Below are positions 1-5,514 of a stretch of DNA of 5,514 nucleotides, in pieces (position 1 is the first letter of the stretch; every line of letters starts with the position of its first letter). Origin of the DNA: a virus; IMG/VR virus record IMGVR_UViG_3300045988_036424, positions 1 through 5,514 of that record; one strand, 5' to 3'. The notes beneath the pieces are model-generated. The model worked only from the letters and a program-made list of their open reading frames with translations. It searched no databases and was not told the DNA's origin. Both the position numbers and the translations under genes were made by a program.

Positions 1-42
1 CTGTTGTACCTGTTTCAGCTGTTCCATTGTTTCGGCTGCTGC
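1..42. repeat. Left copy of a 42-nt terminal direct repeat, identical to 5473-5514. It is a circular-assembly overlap and implies a 5472-nt circular genome.
   Basis: Base-by-base comparison: ctgttgtacctgtttcagctgttccattgtttcggctgctgc occurs at 1-42 and again at 5473-5514. A minus-strand reading frame runs through the junction without interruption. Confidence 0.95.
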
Positions 43-357
43 CTCGGCCTTTTCGTGCATCGTCATGATGTCCTTCGGCAGATTTTCGAGGTCTGTGCCT
101 TCGGTGTATACCATGCTTTTTGCCTTGATGGATGTGTCTCCAGCTTCCAGTCTTGCGATTGCGCTTGCAAGGTCGTAGCCCTCGCCGGCTCGCTGGATTT
201 TCTCGTATGTGTTCTCATCCGGCTGCTGAATGTAGTCGGTTGTGTCGTTCGGTCGCTTTACTGCTTTCCACGTTGGGGCAGTCTTGCTGCCCGGATTGTT
301 TGCTACTCTTTCAGTTGGCATTCCGTAGTATCTTACCATCACATCAGGATTTAACAT
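1..357 (-). CDS. N-terminal 119 codons of a 142-aa ORF that crosses the circular junction and continues at 5472 down to 5401. Putative internal scaffolding protein (VP3-like) by position. The C-terminal tail is rich in Glu and Lys.
   Basis: Hand translation: ATG at 357-355 is preceded by AAGGAGA plus a 6-nt spacer. The product is MLNPDVMVRYYGMPTERVANNPGSKTAPTWKAVKRPNDTTDYIQQPDENTYEKIQRAGEGYDLASAIARLEAGDTSIKAKSMVYTEGTDLENLPKDIMTMHEKAEAAAETMEQLKQVQQ, open to base 1. The ORF sits immediately upstream of VP1 and downstream of the VP5-like gene, as VP3 does in gokushoviruses. Its start overlaps the upstream gene's stop by 14 nt. The functional call rests on synteny and size only. Confidence 0.6.
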   Translation of the reverse strand, partial: MLNPDVMVRYYGMPTERVANNPGSKTAPTWKAVKRPNDTTDYIQQPDENTYEKIQRAGEGYDLASAIARLEAGDTSIKAKSMVYTEGTDLENLPKDIMTMHEKAEAAAETMEQLKQVQQ

Positions 358-598
358 TGGCTGTCTCCTTCAGGTCGATGAGCCGTGCGATGTGTTCAGG
401 CATTGCTTCGCTCATGTAGCCGGTCTCGGTGTCAAATTCGCCCAGTTCCACGAGGCTGATGTCTTCGATTTCGCTTGGCTTGCTTTCGTTGGCTTTCCAT
501 CGTGCCGTTCGGACTGCCTGTGCCCGGTTGTTCTGCAGGAACGGCTGCGAGTAGCCATTGGTCAGCGAATCGTGGAATGTGTAGAACTTCAGTTTCAT
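344..598 (-). CDS. Small non-structural protein, 84 aa, resembling gokushovirus VP5/ORF5.
   Basis: ORF track. ATG at 598 is preceded by GGAGGGG plus a 7-nt spacer. The N-terminus MKLKFYTFHDSLTNGYSQPF...A.R and the segment EDISLVELGEFDTETG resemble the recalled VP5 pattern (MK.FT..D.K......PFF....A.R.F ... PEDY.L.EIG.FD..TG). The gene lies between the accessory genes and the VP3-like gene, as expected. Confidence 0.65.
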   Translation of the reverse strand: MKLKFYTFHDSLTNGYSQPFLQNNRAQAVRTARWKANESKPSEIEDISLVELGEFDTETGYMSEAMPEHIARLIDLKETANVKS

Positions 599-601
599 GT
601 T

Positions 602-994
602 TTAGCCCCTCCATCGAGCTTTCTTTTCCCTTACGTCTATGTGCGTAAAGTTTTCGTATCTGCCTATTCCGTATTTGTCTGGATATTTGCGGTTTAGGTA
701 TCTTTGCACTTCGCTTGCTGGCACCGTTTTCACTTTGATGTCGGCTGCCGTGCCCTTTGTGTGTTGTGAGTTTTTTACACCGCCGATTTTCTTGTTATAT
801 TCTGGTGTTCTGTATCCGCTGGTGATTATTACCGGCATTTTGAAGTTTGTTCTTACATCTTCCAGCACTTTTATCAGTTCTGAGTCGATGAGAACTTCAT
901 CACACTGGTAATCTTTTTGCGCAAATTCTTTCACTTTGAAGTGTTCGCTTACTTGGTGGGTGCCCTGATTGAATAAGCTGTATTCATGCAGCAT
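602..994 (-). CDS. Zinc-dependent cell-wall peptidase of the M15 family (Peptidase_M15_3 / DUF882-like). It is a catalytic domain only and a putative endolysin.
   Basis: 130 aa. Motifs SGYRTPEYN, SQHTKGTAAD (His-x6-Asp) and FTHID (distal His-x-Asp) match the H..D...H zinc triad layout of M15 peptidases. The N-terminal HFKVKEF motif is also typical. No N-terminal hydrophobic signal is present (MLHEYSLFNQGTHQ...). The RBS-like GGGGAAAGAG lies upstream of ATG 994. Confidence 0.88.
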   Translation of the reverse strand: MLHEYSLFNQGTHQVSEHFKVKEFAQKDYQCDEVLIDSELIKVLEDVRTNFKMPVIITSGYRTPEYNKKIGGVKNSQHTKGTAADIKVKTVPASEVQRYLNRKYPDKYGIGRYENFTHIDVREKKARWRG

Positions 995-996
995 TT

Positions 997-1107
997 TTAC
1001 TCTTTCCCCGCGTCTTTCAGTGCGTGGTAAATCTCGTCAAGCTTTTCCAGAATGCGCATCATCAGTTCAATCGCTTCTTTGACGTCCTTGACCTTAATCA
1101 GTGCCAT
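997..1107 (-). CDS. Hypothetical 36-aa micro-ORF with a charged, helical-looking product (MALIKVKDVKEAIELMMRILEKLDEIYHALKDAGKE). It is not in the ORF track.
   Basis: Hand translation. ATG at 1107 is preceded by AAGGAGATGG with about 7 nt spacing. The TAA stop at 999-997 lies 2 nt before the peptidase ATG, a translationally coupled layout. I recognise no homology. Confidence 0.5.
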   Translation of the reverse strand: MALIKVKDVKEAIELMMRILEKLDEIYHALKDAGKE

Positions 1108-1142
1108 TAAACCATCTCCTTTCTTTTTTGGCCTTTGTCCAG

Positions 1143-1259
1143 CTACAGCCTGATGCCGCCCCGGCTGACCTTTGGCCGGACGTTGATGTTTTTTACCCGC
1201 TTTGCAGTCTGGGTAAAATGTTTCTGGTCGCCTCGACCCGCTCCGCTTCTGTGTGCCAT
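1143..1259 (-). CDS. Small, highly basic DNA-binding/packaging protein of 38 aa (phiX174 J-like, gokushovirus ORF8-like). It is not in the ORF track.
   Basis: Hand translation: GAAAGGAGATAACACA-ATG gives a strong SD. The product is MAHRSGAGRGDQKHFTQTAKRVKNINVRPKVSRGGIRL*. It is rich in Arg and Lys and ends in RGGIRL, which I recall as the characteristic C-terminus (MRGGIRF/L) of chlamydiaphage ORF8-type proteins. Confidence 0.75.
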   Translation of the reverse strand: MAHRSGAGRGDQKHFTQTAKRVKNINVRPKVSRGGIRL

Positions 1260-1278
1260 TGTGTTATCTCCTTTCTTT

Positions 1279-1320
1279 TAAATATAAAAGGCAGACAACC
1301 AATATTGGTCGTCTGCCTTT
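1279..1320 (-). terminator. Rho-independent terminator-like hairpin downstream of rep. The stem is 14 bp, the loop 6 nt, and a U-rich tail follows.
   Basis: Minus strand reads AAAGGCAGACGACC-AATATT-GGTTGTCTGCCTTT followed by TATATTTAAAAG. The stems are 1320-1307 and 1300-1287. On the minus-strand RNA the only imperfect pair is a G-U wobble, whereas on the plus strand it is an A-C mismatch. This favours function on minus-strand transcripts. Confidence 0.6.
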
Positions 1321-1349
1321 ATTTTATACAAAAACTTCTGTTTTGTCAA
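1321..1349 (-). promoter_or_regulatory. Sigma-70-type promoter candidate for the J-like / orf36 / peptidase / VP5 / VP3 / VP1 gene block.
   Basis: Minus strand reads TTGACA (1349-1344), a 17-nt spacer, then TAAAAT (1326-1321). That is 6/6 and 5/6 matches to consensus with optimal spacing. It lies about 60 nt upstream of the first strong SD of the block. This is sequence-pattern evidence only. Confidence 0.5.
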
Positions 1350-1489
1350 TACGGCAAGGTTTTTTAAGAAAATAGATTGATATATTAGTTGCTGGTTTTG
1401 CTCCTTTGGTTTGAAAAGCGCTTTAGCGCTCTGCCGCATGGAGCTAAAGCGGAATGCGGCTAATCCATTCATTATAAGCGCTGTGCGCG

Positions 1490-2479
1490 TCATGCTTTCG
1501 GCTCACGCCATTTTTGCTTTAGCTTGTCCTTTTCCTTCTGAATGTTTAGATAGGTTTCATAATCCACGCTTGTAGACTGTTCGAGATTGATTAAGCTTTG
1601 TATTGCACTGCGTCTGCGTCTGGCTCTAACTTCTCTCAGCTCGTCAGAATGTGCCTTAAAATAGCTTTCAGTGTCTTGGCTGGTATCCTTATCAAGTATC
1701 TTATCAAAATAGCGTGGTGGCCTTTTTTCGCGTCCCCCTGCACAGATGATGCTATCTGTCTTTAAGATTTCATCTTTGTGTTCGTTCAGATACTTTTCGC
1801 CAATGCCTTTCGACATGATTCGGAACTCTGGCTCTCTGCCTTCCATCCAGTATTTTGCCGCTTGCTCTGCACCTATGGCTTTCTTGTTGACGTATTGCGC
1901 CACGTATGCAAAGCTTCCCGGTTGTGCTGGTGAAAAGTCTATCATGCCATTGCCCCAGATTTTTTGTAGCCATTCGCTTTTGAAATAGCTGTTGCCTTTT
2001 TGGTTTTTATACCATTGTGCATCCGGTGGCTTTAATCCGAATACTATAGCATGATAGTGTGGTCTTTTTGTTCTGTCGCCGTATTCGGCTGCTAGGAAGT
2101 ATTTTATTGGCTTCTTGTATGCTTTCCGTAGACGTTTCAGAAATAGCTGCACGTCTCGCTTGCTTACTGTTTGACTTTGAATGCTTCTGTAGCCTTTGAC
2201 GATTTCGCCGTATGGTATATGCTCATCGTCATACGTCAGTGTTAGAAAAATCACATCGTTCCATTCTTTGGCTTCTAGCTCTATTCTGGTTGCCCATTGG
2301 TCTGCTATCTGTTTGCGGCAGTACTCGCATTTACCGCATGGTAACAATGCGAATTTTCCTTTTTTGATTCCGTCCATGATGTCCGTTTGCAGTCCTTGTT
2401 TGGATAGGTTTTCCAGACTTCCCCATAGTTTTGGTTTTTTCGTATCCATTTGAAATACTAATGGTTTTGTACATGGCAT
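1490..2479 (-). CDS. Replication initiation protein (Microviridae VP4 / phiX174 gpA-like HUH rolling-circle endonuclease).
   Basis: Motif 1 is FLTLTY, motif 2 is HYHAIVF (HUH), and motif 3 is AYVAQYVNKK with paired catalytic tyrosines as in phiX174 A. An N-terminal Cys cluster PCGKCEYCR is present. The ORF track extends to a GTG at 2494 (334 aa). I prefer the ATG at 2479 (329 aa) because it gives the MPCxxP N-terminus typical of VP4 proteins. The start remains uncertain. Confidence 0.93.
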   Translation of the reverse strand: MPCTKPLVFQMDTKKPKLWGSLENLSKQGLQTDIMDGIKKGKFALLPCGKCEYCRKQIADQWATRIELEAKEWNDVIFLTLTYDDEHIPYGEIVKGYRSIQSQTVSKRDVQLFLKRLRKAYKKPIKYFLAAEYGDRTKRPHYHAIVFGLKPPDAQWYKNQKGNSYFKSEWLQKIWGNGMIDFSPAQPGSFAYVAQYVNKKAIGAEQAAKYWMEGREPEFRIMSKGIGEKYLNEHKDEILKTDSIICAGGREKRPPRYFDKILDKDTSQDTESYFKAHSDELREVRARRRRSAIQSLINLEQSTSVDYETYLNIQKEKDKLKQKWREPKA

Positions 2480-2487
2480 TTTTGTTA

Positions 2488-2520
2488 CCGGCACAAGCTT
2501 CCTTGTCTATCTTGTGCCGG
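2488..2520. promoter_or_regulatory. Perfect 10-bp inverted repeat with a 13-nt loop, immediately upstream of (or overlapping) the rep start.
   Basis: ccggcacaag (2488-2497) and cttgtgccgg (2511-2520) are exact reverse complements. On the minus strand the loop reads ATAGACAAGGAAG and contains an SD-like AAGGAAG. The alternative GTG start at 2494 lies inside the stem. Confidence 0.7.
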
Positions 2521-2573
2521 TTGACACCTCGCTTTCTTTATATATTAACTTGTTGTAGTCGTAGTAGTAGTGT

Positions 2574-2731
2574 TGTTGAAAGTGTTGAAAACTCGTTTTT
2601 TTAACGTTACTACGTTTATTTATTGTCTTTTTGCCTGTTGAAAACTTTGTTGAATTGTTGAATGTTCGTCATTTTTACGAATTTCTTTGTGCAACTTGTT
2701 GTTGAAAACCTGTTGAAAGTGTTGAAAACTC
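2574..2731. repeat. Iteron array of eight GTTGAA(A) copies (TTTCAAC on the coding strand) in three clusters. It includes a perfect 21-nt direct repeat.
   Basis: GTTGAA starts at 2575, 2584, 2637, 2649, 2657, 2701, 2712 and 2721. The clusters begin 62 and 64 nt apart. TGTTGAAAGTGTTGAAAACTC is identical at 2574-2594 and 2711-2731. The array lies in the only large non-coding region (2495-2805). Confidence 0.85.
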
Positions 2732-2769
2732 AAGTTTTCCACATTCTTTATTTTTTGGATTATTGTTAC

Positions 2770-2799
2770 AAAAAAGGGGGATGTTTTCCACCCCCCCTT
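2770..2799 (-). terminator. Rho-independent terminator downstream of VP2.
   Basis: Minus strand just after the VP2 TAA (2808-2806) reads AAGGGGGGG-TGGAAAACAT-CCCCC-TTTTTTG. This is a G/C stem (2776-2780 paired with 2791-2797) followed by a T6 run (2775-2770). Confidence 0.65.
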
Positions 2800-2805
2800 C
2801 CTTTC

Positions 2806-3675
2806 TTAGTCTCCTTTGTATGCGTTGAATGCGTCCATGTTTGGCATGATTGGCACTCTTTGGTTGTACTTTTTGAAGTTTTCTGCTGTGTCTTTGGCTG
2901 CTTTGCCAGCTTTTTCTGCTGCTTTTTCTGCTGCTTTTTTGGCTGCTTTGCCGGCTCCCGCAAGGCCTGCACCTAATTTGCTAGCTGCATAGGTGTACTG
3001 TTGCGCCTGTTTTGCGCTTGAGGTTGCCAGCTCGCTCGCTGCCTGTTCCCAGCTTTTCGCATTCTTAAACTGTTTTGCGCTGGTCGCCTGTTTTGCCAGC
3101 TGTAAGTATTTGTCTGCCAGTTCTGCCGTGTTGTTGCCATATTCGTACATTGCGGATACGCTTGCAGCCTGTGCGCTCTGCTGGTTATAACGTTGGCTTC
3201 CAATGCTTGCAGATGCTCCCGATGGTGCGCTTGTTGCTCCGTTGGTCGCTGCTAGGATAGGATTGATGCCCGCTGCGATCATGTCCTTTACGGTATCTTG
3301 ATAGGCTGTCCCGCGCATTTCCTTTTGAAACGCTCGTTCTGCTGCTGCTTCTGCGCTGTTGTACTTCTTGGCGCTTGCTTGGCTTCCAGCATTCGCGAGG
3401 TTGCTCAGCAGTCCGCTCATCATTTGCAGTGCGTTTGCGGTGTTTACGCTGCTCTGGTTGCCGAATGTGGCAATACCTGTTGGCGTGCTGATTTGTGTCG
3501 CACCGATTTGCTGTGGTGCTGTTACACTGCCGGTTGTGGTCTCGTTGCCTGATGTGGTCTCGTTGCCTGATGCTTGGCTGTTTTTGGCTCCGCTCTGGTT
3601 ACTGCTCGTTATGATGCCTGTTAATATGCTTAGCCCTTGCATGAGGTATGGCATAAAGCTTAATAACGTCTCCAT
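2806..3675 (-). CDS. DNA pilot / minor capsid protein (VP2, phiX174 H-like).
   Basis: 289 aa and located immediately downstream of VP1. It has a hydrophobic N-terminal segment (LLSFMPYLMQGLSILTGIITS), a long low-complexity body rich in Ala, Gln and Ser, and a Lys/Ala-repeat C-terminus (KAAKKAAEKAAEKAGKAAK). This composition is typical of microvirus pilot proteins. The call rests on synteny and composition, not on a specific motif. Confidence 0.8.
   Translation of the reverse strand: METLLSFMPYLMQGLSILTGIITSSNQSGAKNSQASGNETTSGNETTTGSVTAPQQIGATQISTPTGIATFGNQSSVNTANALQMMSGLLSNLANAGSQASAKKYNSAEAAAERAFQKEMRGTAYQDTVKDMIAAGINPILAATNGATSAPSGASASIGSQRYNQQSAQAASVSAMYEYGNNTAELADKYLQLAKQATSAKQFKNAKSWEQAASELATSSAKQAQQYTYAASKLGAGLAGAGKAAKKAAEKAAEKAGKAAKDTAENFKKYNQRVPIMPNMDAFNAYKGD
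3536..3571. repeat. Perfect 2 x 18-nt in-frame tandem duplication inside VP2.
   Basis: gtggtctcgttgcctgat occurs at 3536-3553 and again at 3554-3571. It encodes the duplicated SGNETT-SGNETT segment. Confidence 0.95.
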
Positions 3676-3709
3676 TCAAAAATAGCCCCGCTTTTGCGGG
3701 GCTTCCTCC
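3676..3709 (-). promoter_or_regulatory. Intercistronic hairpin between VP1 and VP2. It is a candidate partial terminator (attenuator) and sits between the only SD and the VP2 start codon.
   Basis: Minus strand reads TAA-GGAAGGAGGA-AGCCCCGC-AAAA-GCGGGGCT-ATTTTTGA-ATG. The 8-bp GC-rich stem (3703-3696 / 3691-3684) has an AAAA tetraloop and is followed by AUUUUUGA. GGAGG (3709-3705) is 29 nt from the ATG linearly, but only 9 unpaired nt separate them if the hairpin is folded. Confidence 0.65.
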
Positions 3710-3713
3710 TTCC

Positions 3714-5384
3714 TTAAATTCTTTCGATTCCCGGGATGCTGTAGATAGGCATTTCGCGGTACCAATCTTCTGTGAAATAGAAGTCACACAAGAATTGGTG
3801 GCTTTTTGCGCTTGTTACTGCAATCGTTCGGTCAACGTTCTTTGTTTCTTCCTGAATCCATTCTGCCGAGAGACGCGGAAGCGTTTCATAATCGTCTGCA
3901 TAGTGCCATGCGTCCAAACTTGTCTGGTAGTTAGACCGCATTTCGCCGGTTACGTAAGAAGGCTTGTAGCGGTAATCCGCCCATGCCTCTTGATAGCCAA
4001 AGATTTCATTATCTTCTGCCGTGCCTTGTGCATAGATTTCGCGGTTGTACACCGGTTGTTCGCCCAGTGCTGCCAGTCGCGGGTCGTAGTAGGTGAATCG
4101 TCCGCCACGTGTCCACTTGGTTGCAAGCCCCTGCTGGTAGCTGTGCTCTACTCGTACCACTGCCAGACCGATGATATAGCCGTACTCAGTTGCCGCATAG
4201 TCTACCATCTCTTTACTGCACGTGGTCAGGCTGTATGCTGCCGTATTGCCCAGTGCCTGTCCGGTTGTCGGGTCCGTCTGGCTTGTCTGCACAACCTGAT
4301 TGACATTGATCGCGATGCGCTGGCCGCCGATGTACTCAGGAATCTGCAGACGGCTGTCCGGTGACGTTACGCCCCACGTACCAGACAGGAACTCGCGATA
4401 GCGCGTGCCGTTGCGTGCATCTGCTTCAAAGATGTGCTGCAATGCAATAGCCATGCGCAAATCTGCAATGCTGATTGCGTTCAAGCTATTTAGGTTTGCG
4501 CCTAGGAATCCTTCTCTAAAGTTTGTTCCTTGGTTTGAGCTCGCCCCCTTTAATTGTGCCGGTTCATTTTCTCCCGGTGCTCCCGGTATATTACAGATTG
4601 CCGGGTATGCTGGTCCCGTTCCGTTCAGGTAAATTGTTACGTTATCCGTAAGTTTATTCGTCAATTCTTTGTTTGTGAATACATTTACGGCTGCGTTTCC
4701 CGTCAGGCTGATTTCCACAGGGTCAGCTTTTAACGGACTCGGCAAACAGCTGGTGAAGTAGTCGTGGAATTTACCAGCTTTTGCGGGATGTCGTGCGTAT
4801 AAGGTCCCCTCGTTTGTGTTTGTCGTTAGGCTTGGTTTGTTTGCGTAGAAATCTTTTGTTGCGTTCCCGGGATTTGGTTCTTTTCCTCCGTTATCTTCTT
4901 TTTTGTACCCTAACATTAACGGCGCTTCAAGATTTTCATCTCGAAACCATTCGTTGTATATCATGGCATACGCTCTTGCTGGGAGTGCGTTCACTTTGAT
5001 TTCGTTTTTTACTCCGGTCGGCAGTCCAAAGTAGTCTCCGATGCTGCCGTTATTTAGACCGGATGTGCCTCCGATTGTGCAAGTCGGTGTGCTGTATTCG
5101 GTCTTTTCTGCCCAGTAGTTTGTGTCGTTTTCTCCGAACATGTTTTCCCAGTGTTCCCAGAGCAGACGACAGGGCACAAAGAAGAAGTAGGTATCCATGT
5201 AGCAGTTGTCCATGATAGGATAGATTGGAGTACTCATACGAATAAGCCCGTTAAGTCGCACTCGTGCGGTATCGCCCGGAAGCACTTCATCGCAGTAGAT
5301 GGGCACTAGATCGCCTTCGTTGATGGTCGTCAGGAGCTGATGACTTCTGTCAAATTTGCTTCGTGGTCGTTCCATTCGCGGCAC
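3714..5384 (-). CDS. Major capsid protein (Microviridae VP1 / F-like).
   Basis: 556 aa from the track's GTG at 5384. The N-terminal signature is RPRSKFDRSHQLLTTINEGDLVPIYCDEVLPGDT, matching the microvirus pattern RS.FD.SH..KTT...G.L.P...DE.LPGDT. The size is typical of gokushovirus-like VP1. The true start is uncertain: alternatives are ATG 5375, or a non-canonical start upstream at 5417 (see findings). Confidence 0.95.
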   Translation of the reverse strand: MPRMERPRSKFDRSHQLLTTINEGDLVPIYCDEVLPGDTARVRLNGLIRMSTPIYPIMDNCYMDTYFFFVPCRLLWEHWENMFGENDTNYWAEKTEYSTPTCTIGGTSGLNNGSIGDYFGLPTGVKNEIKVNALPARAYAMIYNEWFRDENLEAPLMLGYKKEDNGGKEPNPGNATKDFYANKPSLTTNTNEGTLYARHPAKAGKFHDYFTSCLPSPLKADPVEISLTGNAAVNVFTNKELTNKLTDNVTIYLNGTGPAYPAICNIPGAPGENEPAQLKGASSNQGTNFREGFLGANLNSLNAISIADLRMAIALQHIFEADARNGTRYREFLSGTWGVTSPDSRLQIPEYIGGQRIAINVNQVVQTSQTDPTTGQALGNTAAYSLTTCSKEMVDYAATEYGYIIGLAVVRVEHSYQQGLATKWTRGGRFTYYDPRLAALGEQPVYNREIYAQGTAEDNEIFGYQEAWADYRYKPSYVTGEMRSNYQTSLDAWHYADDYETLPRLSAEWIQEETKNVDRTIAVTSAKSHQFLCDFYFTEDWYREMPIYSIPGIERI

Positions 5385-5400
5385 TTGCGCGAAATGGTTT

Positions 5401-5514
5401 TCACTGTTTCTGTTCGTTTTCCTTCACCTCTTCCTTTTTTTCTTCCTTCTCTTCCGGCTTCGGCTGTTCGGTCTGTTGTACCTGTTTCAGCTGTTCCATT
5501 GTTTCGGCTGCTGC
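5401..5514 (-). CDS. C-terminal part of the same junction-spanning VP3-like ORF. Bases 5473-5514 duplicate 1-42, and the stop codon TGA is at 5403-5401.
   Basis: Reverse complement of 5472-5401 reads ACC GAA CAG CCG AAG CCG GAA GAG AAG GAA GAA AAA AAG GAA GAG GTG AAG GAA AAC GAA CAG AAA CAG TGA, in frame with codons 1-119 across the junction (TEQPKPEEKEEKKEEVKENEQKQ*). Confidence 0.6.
   Translation of the reverse strand, partial: AAAETMEQLKQVQQTEQPKPEEKEEKKEEVKENEQKQ
5473..5514. repeat. Right copy of the 42-nt terminal direct repeat (circular overlap).
   Basis: Identical to 1-42. Confidence 0.95.

Follow-up and report, generated by a model that had tools for sequence, protein, structure and literature searches.

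Where does translation of a major capsid gene begin when its conserved coding sequence reaches upstream of every canonical start codon? The VP1 gene in IMG/VR record IMGVR_UViG_3300045988_036424 raises this question, and we addressed it by analyzing positions 1 to 5,514 of that record (the window, meaning this whole 5,514-nucleotide stretch, whose numbering is used throughout). The window holds a complete circular gokushovirus genome of 5472 nt followed by a 42-nt terminal repeat, with genes on the minus strand; the record has direct terminal repeats and a completeness estimate of 100%. The source virus is a human-gut gokushovirus, and the feature described here is clade-wide, extending beyond this single genome. 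Read along the minus strand, the VP1 frame runs from a TGA at 5426-5424 through AGG AAA to an ACG at 5417-5415, and then through AAC AGA AAC AGT GAA AAC CAT TTC GCG CAA to GTG 5384, CCG CGA, and ATG 5375. Between the TGA and 5384 there are no in-frame ATG, GTG, TTG, CTG or ATH codons, and GTG 5384 and ATG 5375 are the sole canonical starts of the frame. ACG does not belong to the table 11 start set and is regarded as a non-start codon in bacteria.

The original prediction, made from the letters of this stretch alone, had pointed out that the VP1 frame is open upstream of GTG 5384 back to the TGA, with no ATG, GTG or TTG in frame; that the ACG sits 6 nt downstream of a perfect GAGGTGA (5430-5424); that an out-of-frame GTG at 5404 is followed by an A4 run; and that the region overlaps the end of a VP3-like gene in another frame. 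Each of these observations was confirmed in the sequence, the VP3-like gene ending at TGA 5403-5401. Three explanations had been put forward: non-canonical initiation at the ACG, a T-to-C substitution or sequencing error of an ATG, and a slip or indel at the A run following GTG 5404. Selection, start-codon interchange, compensation by the Shine-Dalgarno (SD) sequence, and homology all favor the first. On this comparative evidence, we consider it likely that VP1 of the source genome, and of most of its clade, is translated by genuine SD-driven initiation at ACG, and that this arrangement is evolutionarily stable.

Selection and homology upstream of the canonical starts

If the codons between the ACG and GTG 5384 are translated, they should evolve as protein-coding sequence in the VP1 frame. 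Selection was assessed in a set of 60 loci found via peptides from the capsid body, and thus without ascertainment on the N-terminus, with substitutions counted on the VP1 tree of these loci. Codons 2-14, counted from the ACG, have undergone 67 synonymous and 7 non-synonymous changes (omega ~0.03), which is indistinguishable from the 112 synonymous and 13 non-synonymous changes at codons 16-28 (omega 0.03). When only the 52 genomes with ACG were considered, codons 2-11, all of which lie upstream of both canonical starts, showed 30 synonymous against 4 non-synonymous changes (omega 0.026, p = 7e-20), with no stop and no indel, while the adjacent VP1 coding sequence differs by up to 27%. The other two frames of the same stretch gave synonymous/non-synonymous counts of 16/52 and 1/67, as well as stops. 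Individual codons illustrate this pattern: Arg-3 switches among AGA, CGA and CGG by changes that are non-synonymous in the overlapping scaffold frame, and Ser at position 7 is encoded by both AGC and TCG/TCA. Thus, the frame downstream of the ACG and upstream of the canonical starts is under protein-level selection, and this constraint on codons 2-14 shows, as judged from the pattern of substitutions, that the 13 codons after the ACG are translated in the VP1 frame, and therefore that the peptide is made and matters for fitness.

The homology of the encoded protein leads to the same region. The original prediction had likened the N-terminus to that of chlamydiaphage and gokushovirus VP1, and had called for an alignment of the extended 567-aa translation with reference VP1 proteins. 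In this alignment the resemblance proved real, and the similarity reaches upstream of both 5384 and 5375. VP1 matches Pfam Phage_F (PF02305) with 488.9 bits (cut-off 25; E = 2.4e-146), its residues 10-563 corresponding to profile positions 1-500 of 501, such that the first position of the profile aligns at residue 10, upstream of GTG 5384 and ATG 5375. Among solved capsids, 9CGM (SpV4) and 8DES (phiEC6098) are homologous with E = 8.8e-116 and E = 1.1e-112, respectively. The alignment with 8DES begins at residue 2 of the ACG-started protein (NRNSENHFAQVP vs NAKSQHNFSVIP), and the extension corresponds to 8DES residues 11-23. The full-length Phage_F match and the homology to solved capsids identify the predicted protein as the Gokushovirinae major capsid protein VP1. 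The corresponding N-terminal arm of SpV4 is internal to the capsid, where packaging of the genome makes it ordered, and that of phiEC6098 touches VP8, the small DNA-binding protein (PMC11281519). By homology, the N-terminal peptide encoded here would also be located inside the capsid, touching DNA or a small DNA-binding protein.

The proposed start codon and its Shine-Dalgarno sequence across the clade

To see what occupies the position of the ACG in other genomes, we pooled 112 distinct related junctions from IMG/VR, ENA and JGI metagenomes, Logan and GenBank. The codon equivalent to 5417-5415 is ACG in 92 of them, ATA in 9, ATG in 8, GTG in 2 and GCG in 1, always at a distance of 6 nt from the GAGGTGA site. 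Comparison of these junctions shows that the codon interchanges only with ATG, ATA, GTG and, once, GCG. Thus the ACG, a single-base variant of AUG with the spacing from the SD that a start codon would have, is replaced by canonical starts at the same position in some relatives (ATG 8/112, GTG 2/112). In addition, for relatives whose VP1 is called as MNRNSE..., an ATG was found exactly at the ACG-equivalent codon in 10 of 10 fetched, and the sister clade that forms the outgroup (L084/L095/L168) likewise shows ATG here, preceded by an SD as well. The ACG is the sole conserved feature between the stop and codon 2: the two codons preceding it vary (AGG/AGC/AGA/AAG, then AAA/AGA/ACA/AAG), and the stop itself, at codon -3, is TGA in 63 of 66 ACG genomes and TAA in the remaining 3. 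Read-through from upstream was ruled out, since the VP1 frame is closed by stops at codons -3, -24 and -40, with no start between -24 and -3, nor between -40 and -24. Two unusual junctions may be described here. The single GCG, in L102 / L015 (IMGVR_UViG_3300045988_013551), is two mismatches away from AUG, and the GAGGTGA upstream of it is unchanged. The partial 4740-nt contig L035 (IMGVR_UViG_3300045988_030479, 1440-1560) has an ATG at the start position and a deletion directly after it (ATG AAC CAG TGA), and both the VP1 extension and the scaffold stop are broken.

A sequencing or assembly error at the ACG was ruled out by its presence in 92 distinct junctions from several collections and studies, and by two independent GenBank genomes, KX513876 (China, 89% identical) and MT121961 (Ireland, 87% identical), both of which agree with the window in the ACG...GTGAAAACC stretch and in the A4 run. 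One ACG contig has an assembly coverage of 343x. With regard to the second of the original explanations, the error it allowed for is refuted, and a T-to-C change is right only in a historical sense. The outgroup has ATG, and the comparison indicates that the ACG became fixed and has been maintained, rather than being a lesion. In the tree, the ancestral codon is ACG for two deep clades, with nucleotide identities as low as 73%, and ATA for a third. ATG and GTG are found at isolated tips, and no fewer than 13 changes between weak and strong start codons have to be assumed. Replacing C by T at 5416 would be silent in the scaffold frame that overlaps it (AAC to AAT), and the overlap therefore does not explain why ACG has been retained.

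The SD sequence of the window, GGAAGAGGTGA, pairs with the 16S anti-SD at -14.6 kcal/mol and is the strongest in the genome, other genes ranging from -6 to -10. As had been noted in the original prediction, the two canonical starts essentially lack an SD, with pairing energies of -3.9 kcal/mol for GTG 5384 and -1.7 kcal/mol for ATG 5375. In the predicted RNA fold, the SD region forms an unpaired purine-rich tract. We also considered whether a hairpin might bridge the distance from this SD to ATG 5375, and rejected this arrangement: only a weak local hairpin forms around the GTG and ATG (z = -0.25), and ~30 unpaired nt separate it from the SD.

The GAGGTGA 7-mer is kept in 85 of 92 ACG junctions and in all 9 ATA junctions, even though its G's are synonymous sites of the overlapping frame. 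Across relatives, mean SD pairing is -15.6 kcal/mol for ACG and -14.4 kcal/mol for ATA, vs -7 to -9 for the ATG outgroup. Loss of the 7-mer, to GAAGTGA, GAGGTCA, GAAGTAA and others, was seen in 11 of 18 ATG/GTG genomes vs 4 of 70 weak-start genomes (Fisher p = 1e-6). To account for shared ancestry, 12 phylogenetically independent pairs were compared; the stronger codon went with the weaker SD 7-8 times and the reverse was never observed (sign test p ~0.008-0.016). These comparisons show that start-codon strength co-varies with SD strength across the related sequences. Such a trade-off is what is expected of an initiation codon, unlike an internal sense codon or a frameshift site, and it points to initiation at this position. 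The proposal that conserved coding begins before 5384, with ACG 5417 where a start would be expected, is thus strongly supported by the comparative data.

Proposed ACG initiation and its alternatives

How might a ribosome start on such a codon? We propose that the initiator tRNA reads ACG 5417-5415 as a near-cognate of AUG, which would yield (f)Met-NRNSENHFAQVPR... Initiation would be driven by the exceptionally long SD GGAAGAGGTGA, 6 nt upstream in the unstructured purine-rich tract inside the end of the scaffold gene, and the strength of this SD would compensate for the weak ACG, such that it is tolerated or even favored. Ribosomes terminating on the scaffold gene, 12 nt downstream of the ACG, may also help initiation. 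We infer that the ACG itself is the decoding start and Met the first residue; in E. coli, ACG-initiated GFP carries an N-terminal Met (bioRxiv 10.1101/063800).

Several points weigh against initiation at the ACG. In E. coli, ACG falls in a class of codons that initiate at 0.1-1% of AUG (bioRxiv 10.1101/063800), and AUG-to-ACG changes serve as start-codon knock-outs (bioRxiv 10.1101/520783). Such a weak start is hard to reconcile with the abundance of VP1, which exceeds that of any other virion protein, unless its efficiency is altered by the host, the SD or translational coupling. Among the relatives, the genome with GCG at the start position is otherwise intact, and a 5-nt deletion destroys the extension in L035, which reflects either a genuine defect of that genome or a misassembly; no other of the 61 loci has such a deletion. 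Finally, the invariance of Met-15 leaves room for a shorter isoform, possibly the more abundant one.

This last point leads to an alternative that includes ACG initiation rather than replacing it. In this model, the ACG would give a long VP1 with the 14-residue N-terminal peptide, and ATG 5375 a shorter and perhaps more abundant VP1, made by reinitiation after termination on the scaffold gene. Each of the 88 VP1 genes of the ingroup has Met-15, whereas its neighbors Arg-14 and Glu-16 vary, and the ATG-start sister clade has Ala at this position in place of Met (QVPHAEIRR). The scaffold stop lies just upstream, 26 nt before ATG 5375, the ACG is expected to be weak, and, as in adeno-associated virus (AAV), the ACG at 5417 stands upstream of an in-frame, invariant ATG. 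Set against this, ATG 5375 has no SD (-1.7 kcal/mol) and lies in the weak local hairpin, and the extension is as constrained as the capsid core. Moreover, one branch of the tree accounts for the origin of both Met-15 and the weak start, and their association therefore carries no statistical weight. We consider two isoforms rather unlikely.

It is very unlikely, by comparison, that VP1 starts only at ATG 5375 or GTG 5384, and that the similarity upstream is left over, untranslated, from an earlier N-terminus. In favor of this view, the frame has no other canonical start codons, VP1 is called in this way in KX513876 and MT121961, as are 101 of the 120 nearest database proteins, and L035 lacks an intact extension. 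Yet such a remnant would decay, and codons 2-11 of the 52 ACG genomes, with their 30 vs 4 changes and no stop or indel, have not. GTG 5384 is replaced by GTA in 18 of the 76 ingroup genomes, the two codons having switched 16 times along the tree; it is therefore an internal Val codon, and neither it nor ATG 5375 has an SD, in contrast to the -6 to -10 kcal/mol of other genes. A +1 ribosomal frameshift between 5423 and 5415, out of the VP3-like scaffold frame and into a scaffold-capsid fusion, is highly improbable. The scaffold frame does pass through the site and is the sole open frame upstream, but the nine bases at which the shift would occur vary (AGGAAA, AGCAGA, AGGACA, AGAAGA, ACGACA and others) and form no slippery or hungry-codon motif. 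The ATG and GTG relatives plainly initiate at the site, the co-variation of SD and start codon is a prediction of initiation and not of frameshifting, and a 140-residue N-terminal fusion on every capsid subunit seems implausible. More generally, no programmed frameshift motif, for either a +1 shift from the scaffold frame or a -1 shift from GTG 5404, is conserved among relatives, in which 5423-5418 vary.

A C-to-U change at 5416, in the mRNA or in replicative DNA, would present the ribosome with an AUG. To our knowledge, site-specific C-to-U editing of mRNA is not established as a bacterial mechanism. Editing of ACG to AUG does exist in chloroplasts (PMC9845219), but nothing in the present data argues for it directly, the ATA genomes (9 junctions) would not be rescued by it, and SD compensation implies that the codon is functionally weak; we give this idea hardly any credence. 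The third of the original explanations, by which translation would begin at the out-of-frame GTG 5404 and slip by -1 on the A run, or by which a one-base indel error hides the true frame, can be considered refuted, and we attach a negligible probability to it. GTG 5404 overlaps the scaffold stop as GTGA, an arrangement of start and stop that is common in coupled genes, and one extra A would yield MKNHFAQVP. However, the A4 run is found in only 32 of 60 relatives, the others reading GTGAAAGC, GTGAGAAC, GTGAATCG or GTGAAGAC; purifying selection acts in the VP1 frame on codons 2-5, which lie upstream of GTG 5404, with 14 synonymous changes vs 1 non-synonymous; and the sequence is identical in independent assemblies.

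Returning to initiation at the ACG, what might such a start be for? Selection may actively keep a very weak start (ACG, or ATA in one subclade) on the capsid gene, paired with an over-strong SD. In that case, either capsid synthesis would be tied to ribosomes delivered by the scaffold gene, providing a built-in scaffold-to-capsid stoichiometry, or the uncultured gut host would initiate efficiently on ACG. We regard this proposal as possible but tentative. With regard to hosts, one 5.7-kb ACG-type genome (L225, CAVKUS010000079.1) is binned in a metagenome-assembled genome (MAG) labelled 'Bacteroides sp. CAG:545', which is a weak hint and not decisive. A VP1 with 40% identity (L226, CALWEH010000003.1) is encoded on a 132-kb contig that belongs to the MAG of an uncultured member of the Clostridia; it is probably part of a prophage and has an ordinary AAAGGAG-N7-ATG start.

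Locus layout, annotation and relation to known systems

The coordinates of the features discussed here are collected in the table. The gene immediately upstream of VP1 encodes 142 aa; it runs 357..1, crosses the circular junction and ends at TGA 5403-5401, the last 42 nt of the window being a repeat of the first 42. It overlaps the ACG-started VP1 by 17 nt, and gene calls for relatives have an equal arrangement of scaffold and VP1. Its product matches Pfam Chlamy_scaf weakly and below the Pfam cut-off (21.1 bits, cut-off 25; E = 3.7e-4) and has no match in PHROGs, and we assign it as a putative VP3-like scaffold gene on the weak Pfam match. The C-terminal tail of this protein (window 5436-5470, minus strand, and relatives) is rich in Lys and Glu and variable in length and sequence (EEKEEKKEEVKENEQKQ). 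As a protein sequence this tail is free to change, whereas conservation is maintained in the overlapping VP1 codons and SD.

Table. Features at the junction of the VP3-like and VP1 genes, in window coordinates
Feature	Position	Strand	Remarks
VP1 major capsid gene, proposed form	3714..5417	-	567 codons, from ACG 5417 to the stop at 3716-3714; Phage_F and solved-capsid homology
Extended Shine-Dalgarno sequence GGAAGAGGTGA	5424..5434	-	core GAGGTGA at 5430-5424; inside the VP3-like gene; last 3 bases are the VP1-frame stop TGA 5426-5424
ACG, proposed VP1 initiation codon	5415..5417	-	6 nt after GAGGTGA
N-terminal extension, codons 2-14, NRNSENHFAQVPR	5376..5414	-	upstream of ATG 5375; codons 2-11 also upstream of GTG 5384
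Stop TGA of the VP3-like scaffold gene	5401..5403	-	12 nt downstream of the ACG
GTG, VP1 start in the GenBank annotation of KX513876	5382..5384	-	read here as internal Val-12
ATG, codon 15, start in gene calls for most relatives	5373..5375	-	read as internal Met-15; may be a secondary start

The choice of start has consequences for annotation. Among the 120 nearest database VP1 proteins (P0002-P0121), the start is called at ATG-15 in 100, at GTG-12 in 1, and at an ATG at the ACG-equivalent codon in 19. Thus 101 of the 120 lack the conserved N-terminal arm, 14 residues being missing in 100 and 11 in one, and the annotation pipelines, structure predictions and capsid phylogenies of the clade inherit this truncation. 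The two GenBank relatives are annotated with different VP1 starts, GTG-12 in KX513876 and ATG-15 in MT121961. If ACG initiation is correct, a stable, clade-wide ACG on the top-expressed structural gene of abundant gut phages would be a natural case of SD-compensated near-cognate initiation, and a ready-made system for studying trade-offs among SD strength, start-codon identity and translational coupling. If, in addition, the host initiates efficiently on ACG, some gut bacteria would have a wider repertoire of start codons than table 11 allows.

A literature search for ACG starts in phages, Microviridae and bacteria found only eukaryotic, organellar or synthetic cases: the natural ACG starts among them all came from eukaryotic viruses or genes, editing of ACG to AUG was confined to organelles, and no description was found of a clade-wide ACG start on a phage capsid gene. 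The gene itself is best compared with VP1 of the canonical-start Gokushovirinae (phiEC6098, 8DES; SpV4, 9CGM; and the sister clade L084/L095/L168), to which it is homologous throughout, with the same gene order, the scaffold gene immediately upstream, and a common N-terminal motif, H-x-F-x-Q/V-x-P ... RS-x-F-[DN]-R. Those genes have an ATG start preceded by an SD of ordinary strength (~-7 to -9 kcal/mol for the sister clade), whereas this clade combines ACG or ATA with ~-15 kcal/mol. Plant organelles likewise have a genomic ACG at a conserved start position, which is edited from C to U, but an editing machinery is not, as far as we know, established in bacteria, and the ATA variants do not fit.

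The AAV capsid protein VP2, and also the Sendai virus C' protein, provide another parallel. As in AAV VP2, the ACG here precedes an in-frame AUG of the capsid gene, the virus is a small single-stranded DNA virus with a T=1 shell, and the ACG start would add an N-terminal extension located within the particle. However, AAV relies on eukaryotic scanning and leaky initiation, which produce a minor isoform, while the site described here is a bacterial, SD-led one. In bacteria, rare starts other than AUG, GUG and UUG include the AUU of E. coli infC and pcnB, and the near-cognates AUA, AUC and CUG. Like these, the VP1 start is one base from AUG, stands behind an SD, is conserved in relatives and presumably tunes expression. 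Unlike the infC and pcnB type, its mismatch is at the middle position, the weakest class in E. coli, and the gene encodes the most abundant structural protein rather than a low-level regulator, with no implied feedback of the IF3 type. By analogy, then, the closest counterpart in mechanism would be the rare near-cognate starts of bacterial genes, of which the AUU of infC is an example, and the closest in logic AAV VP2.

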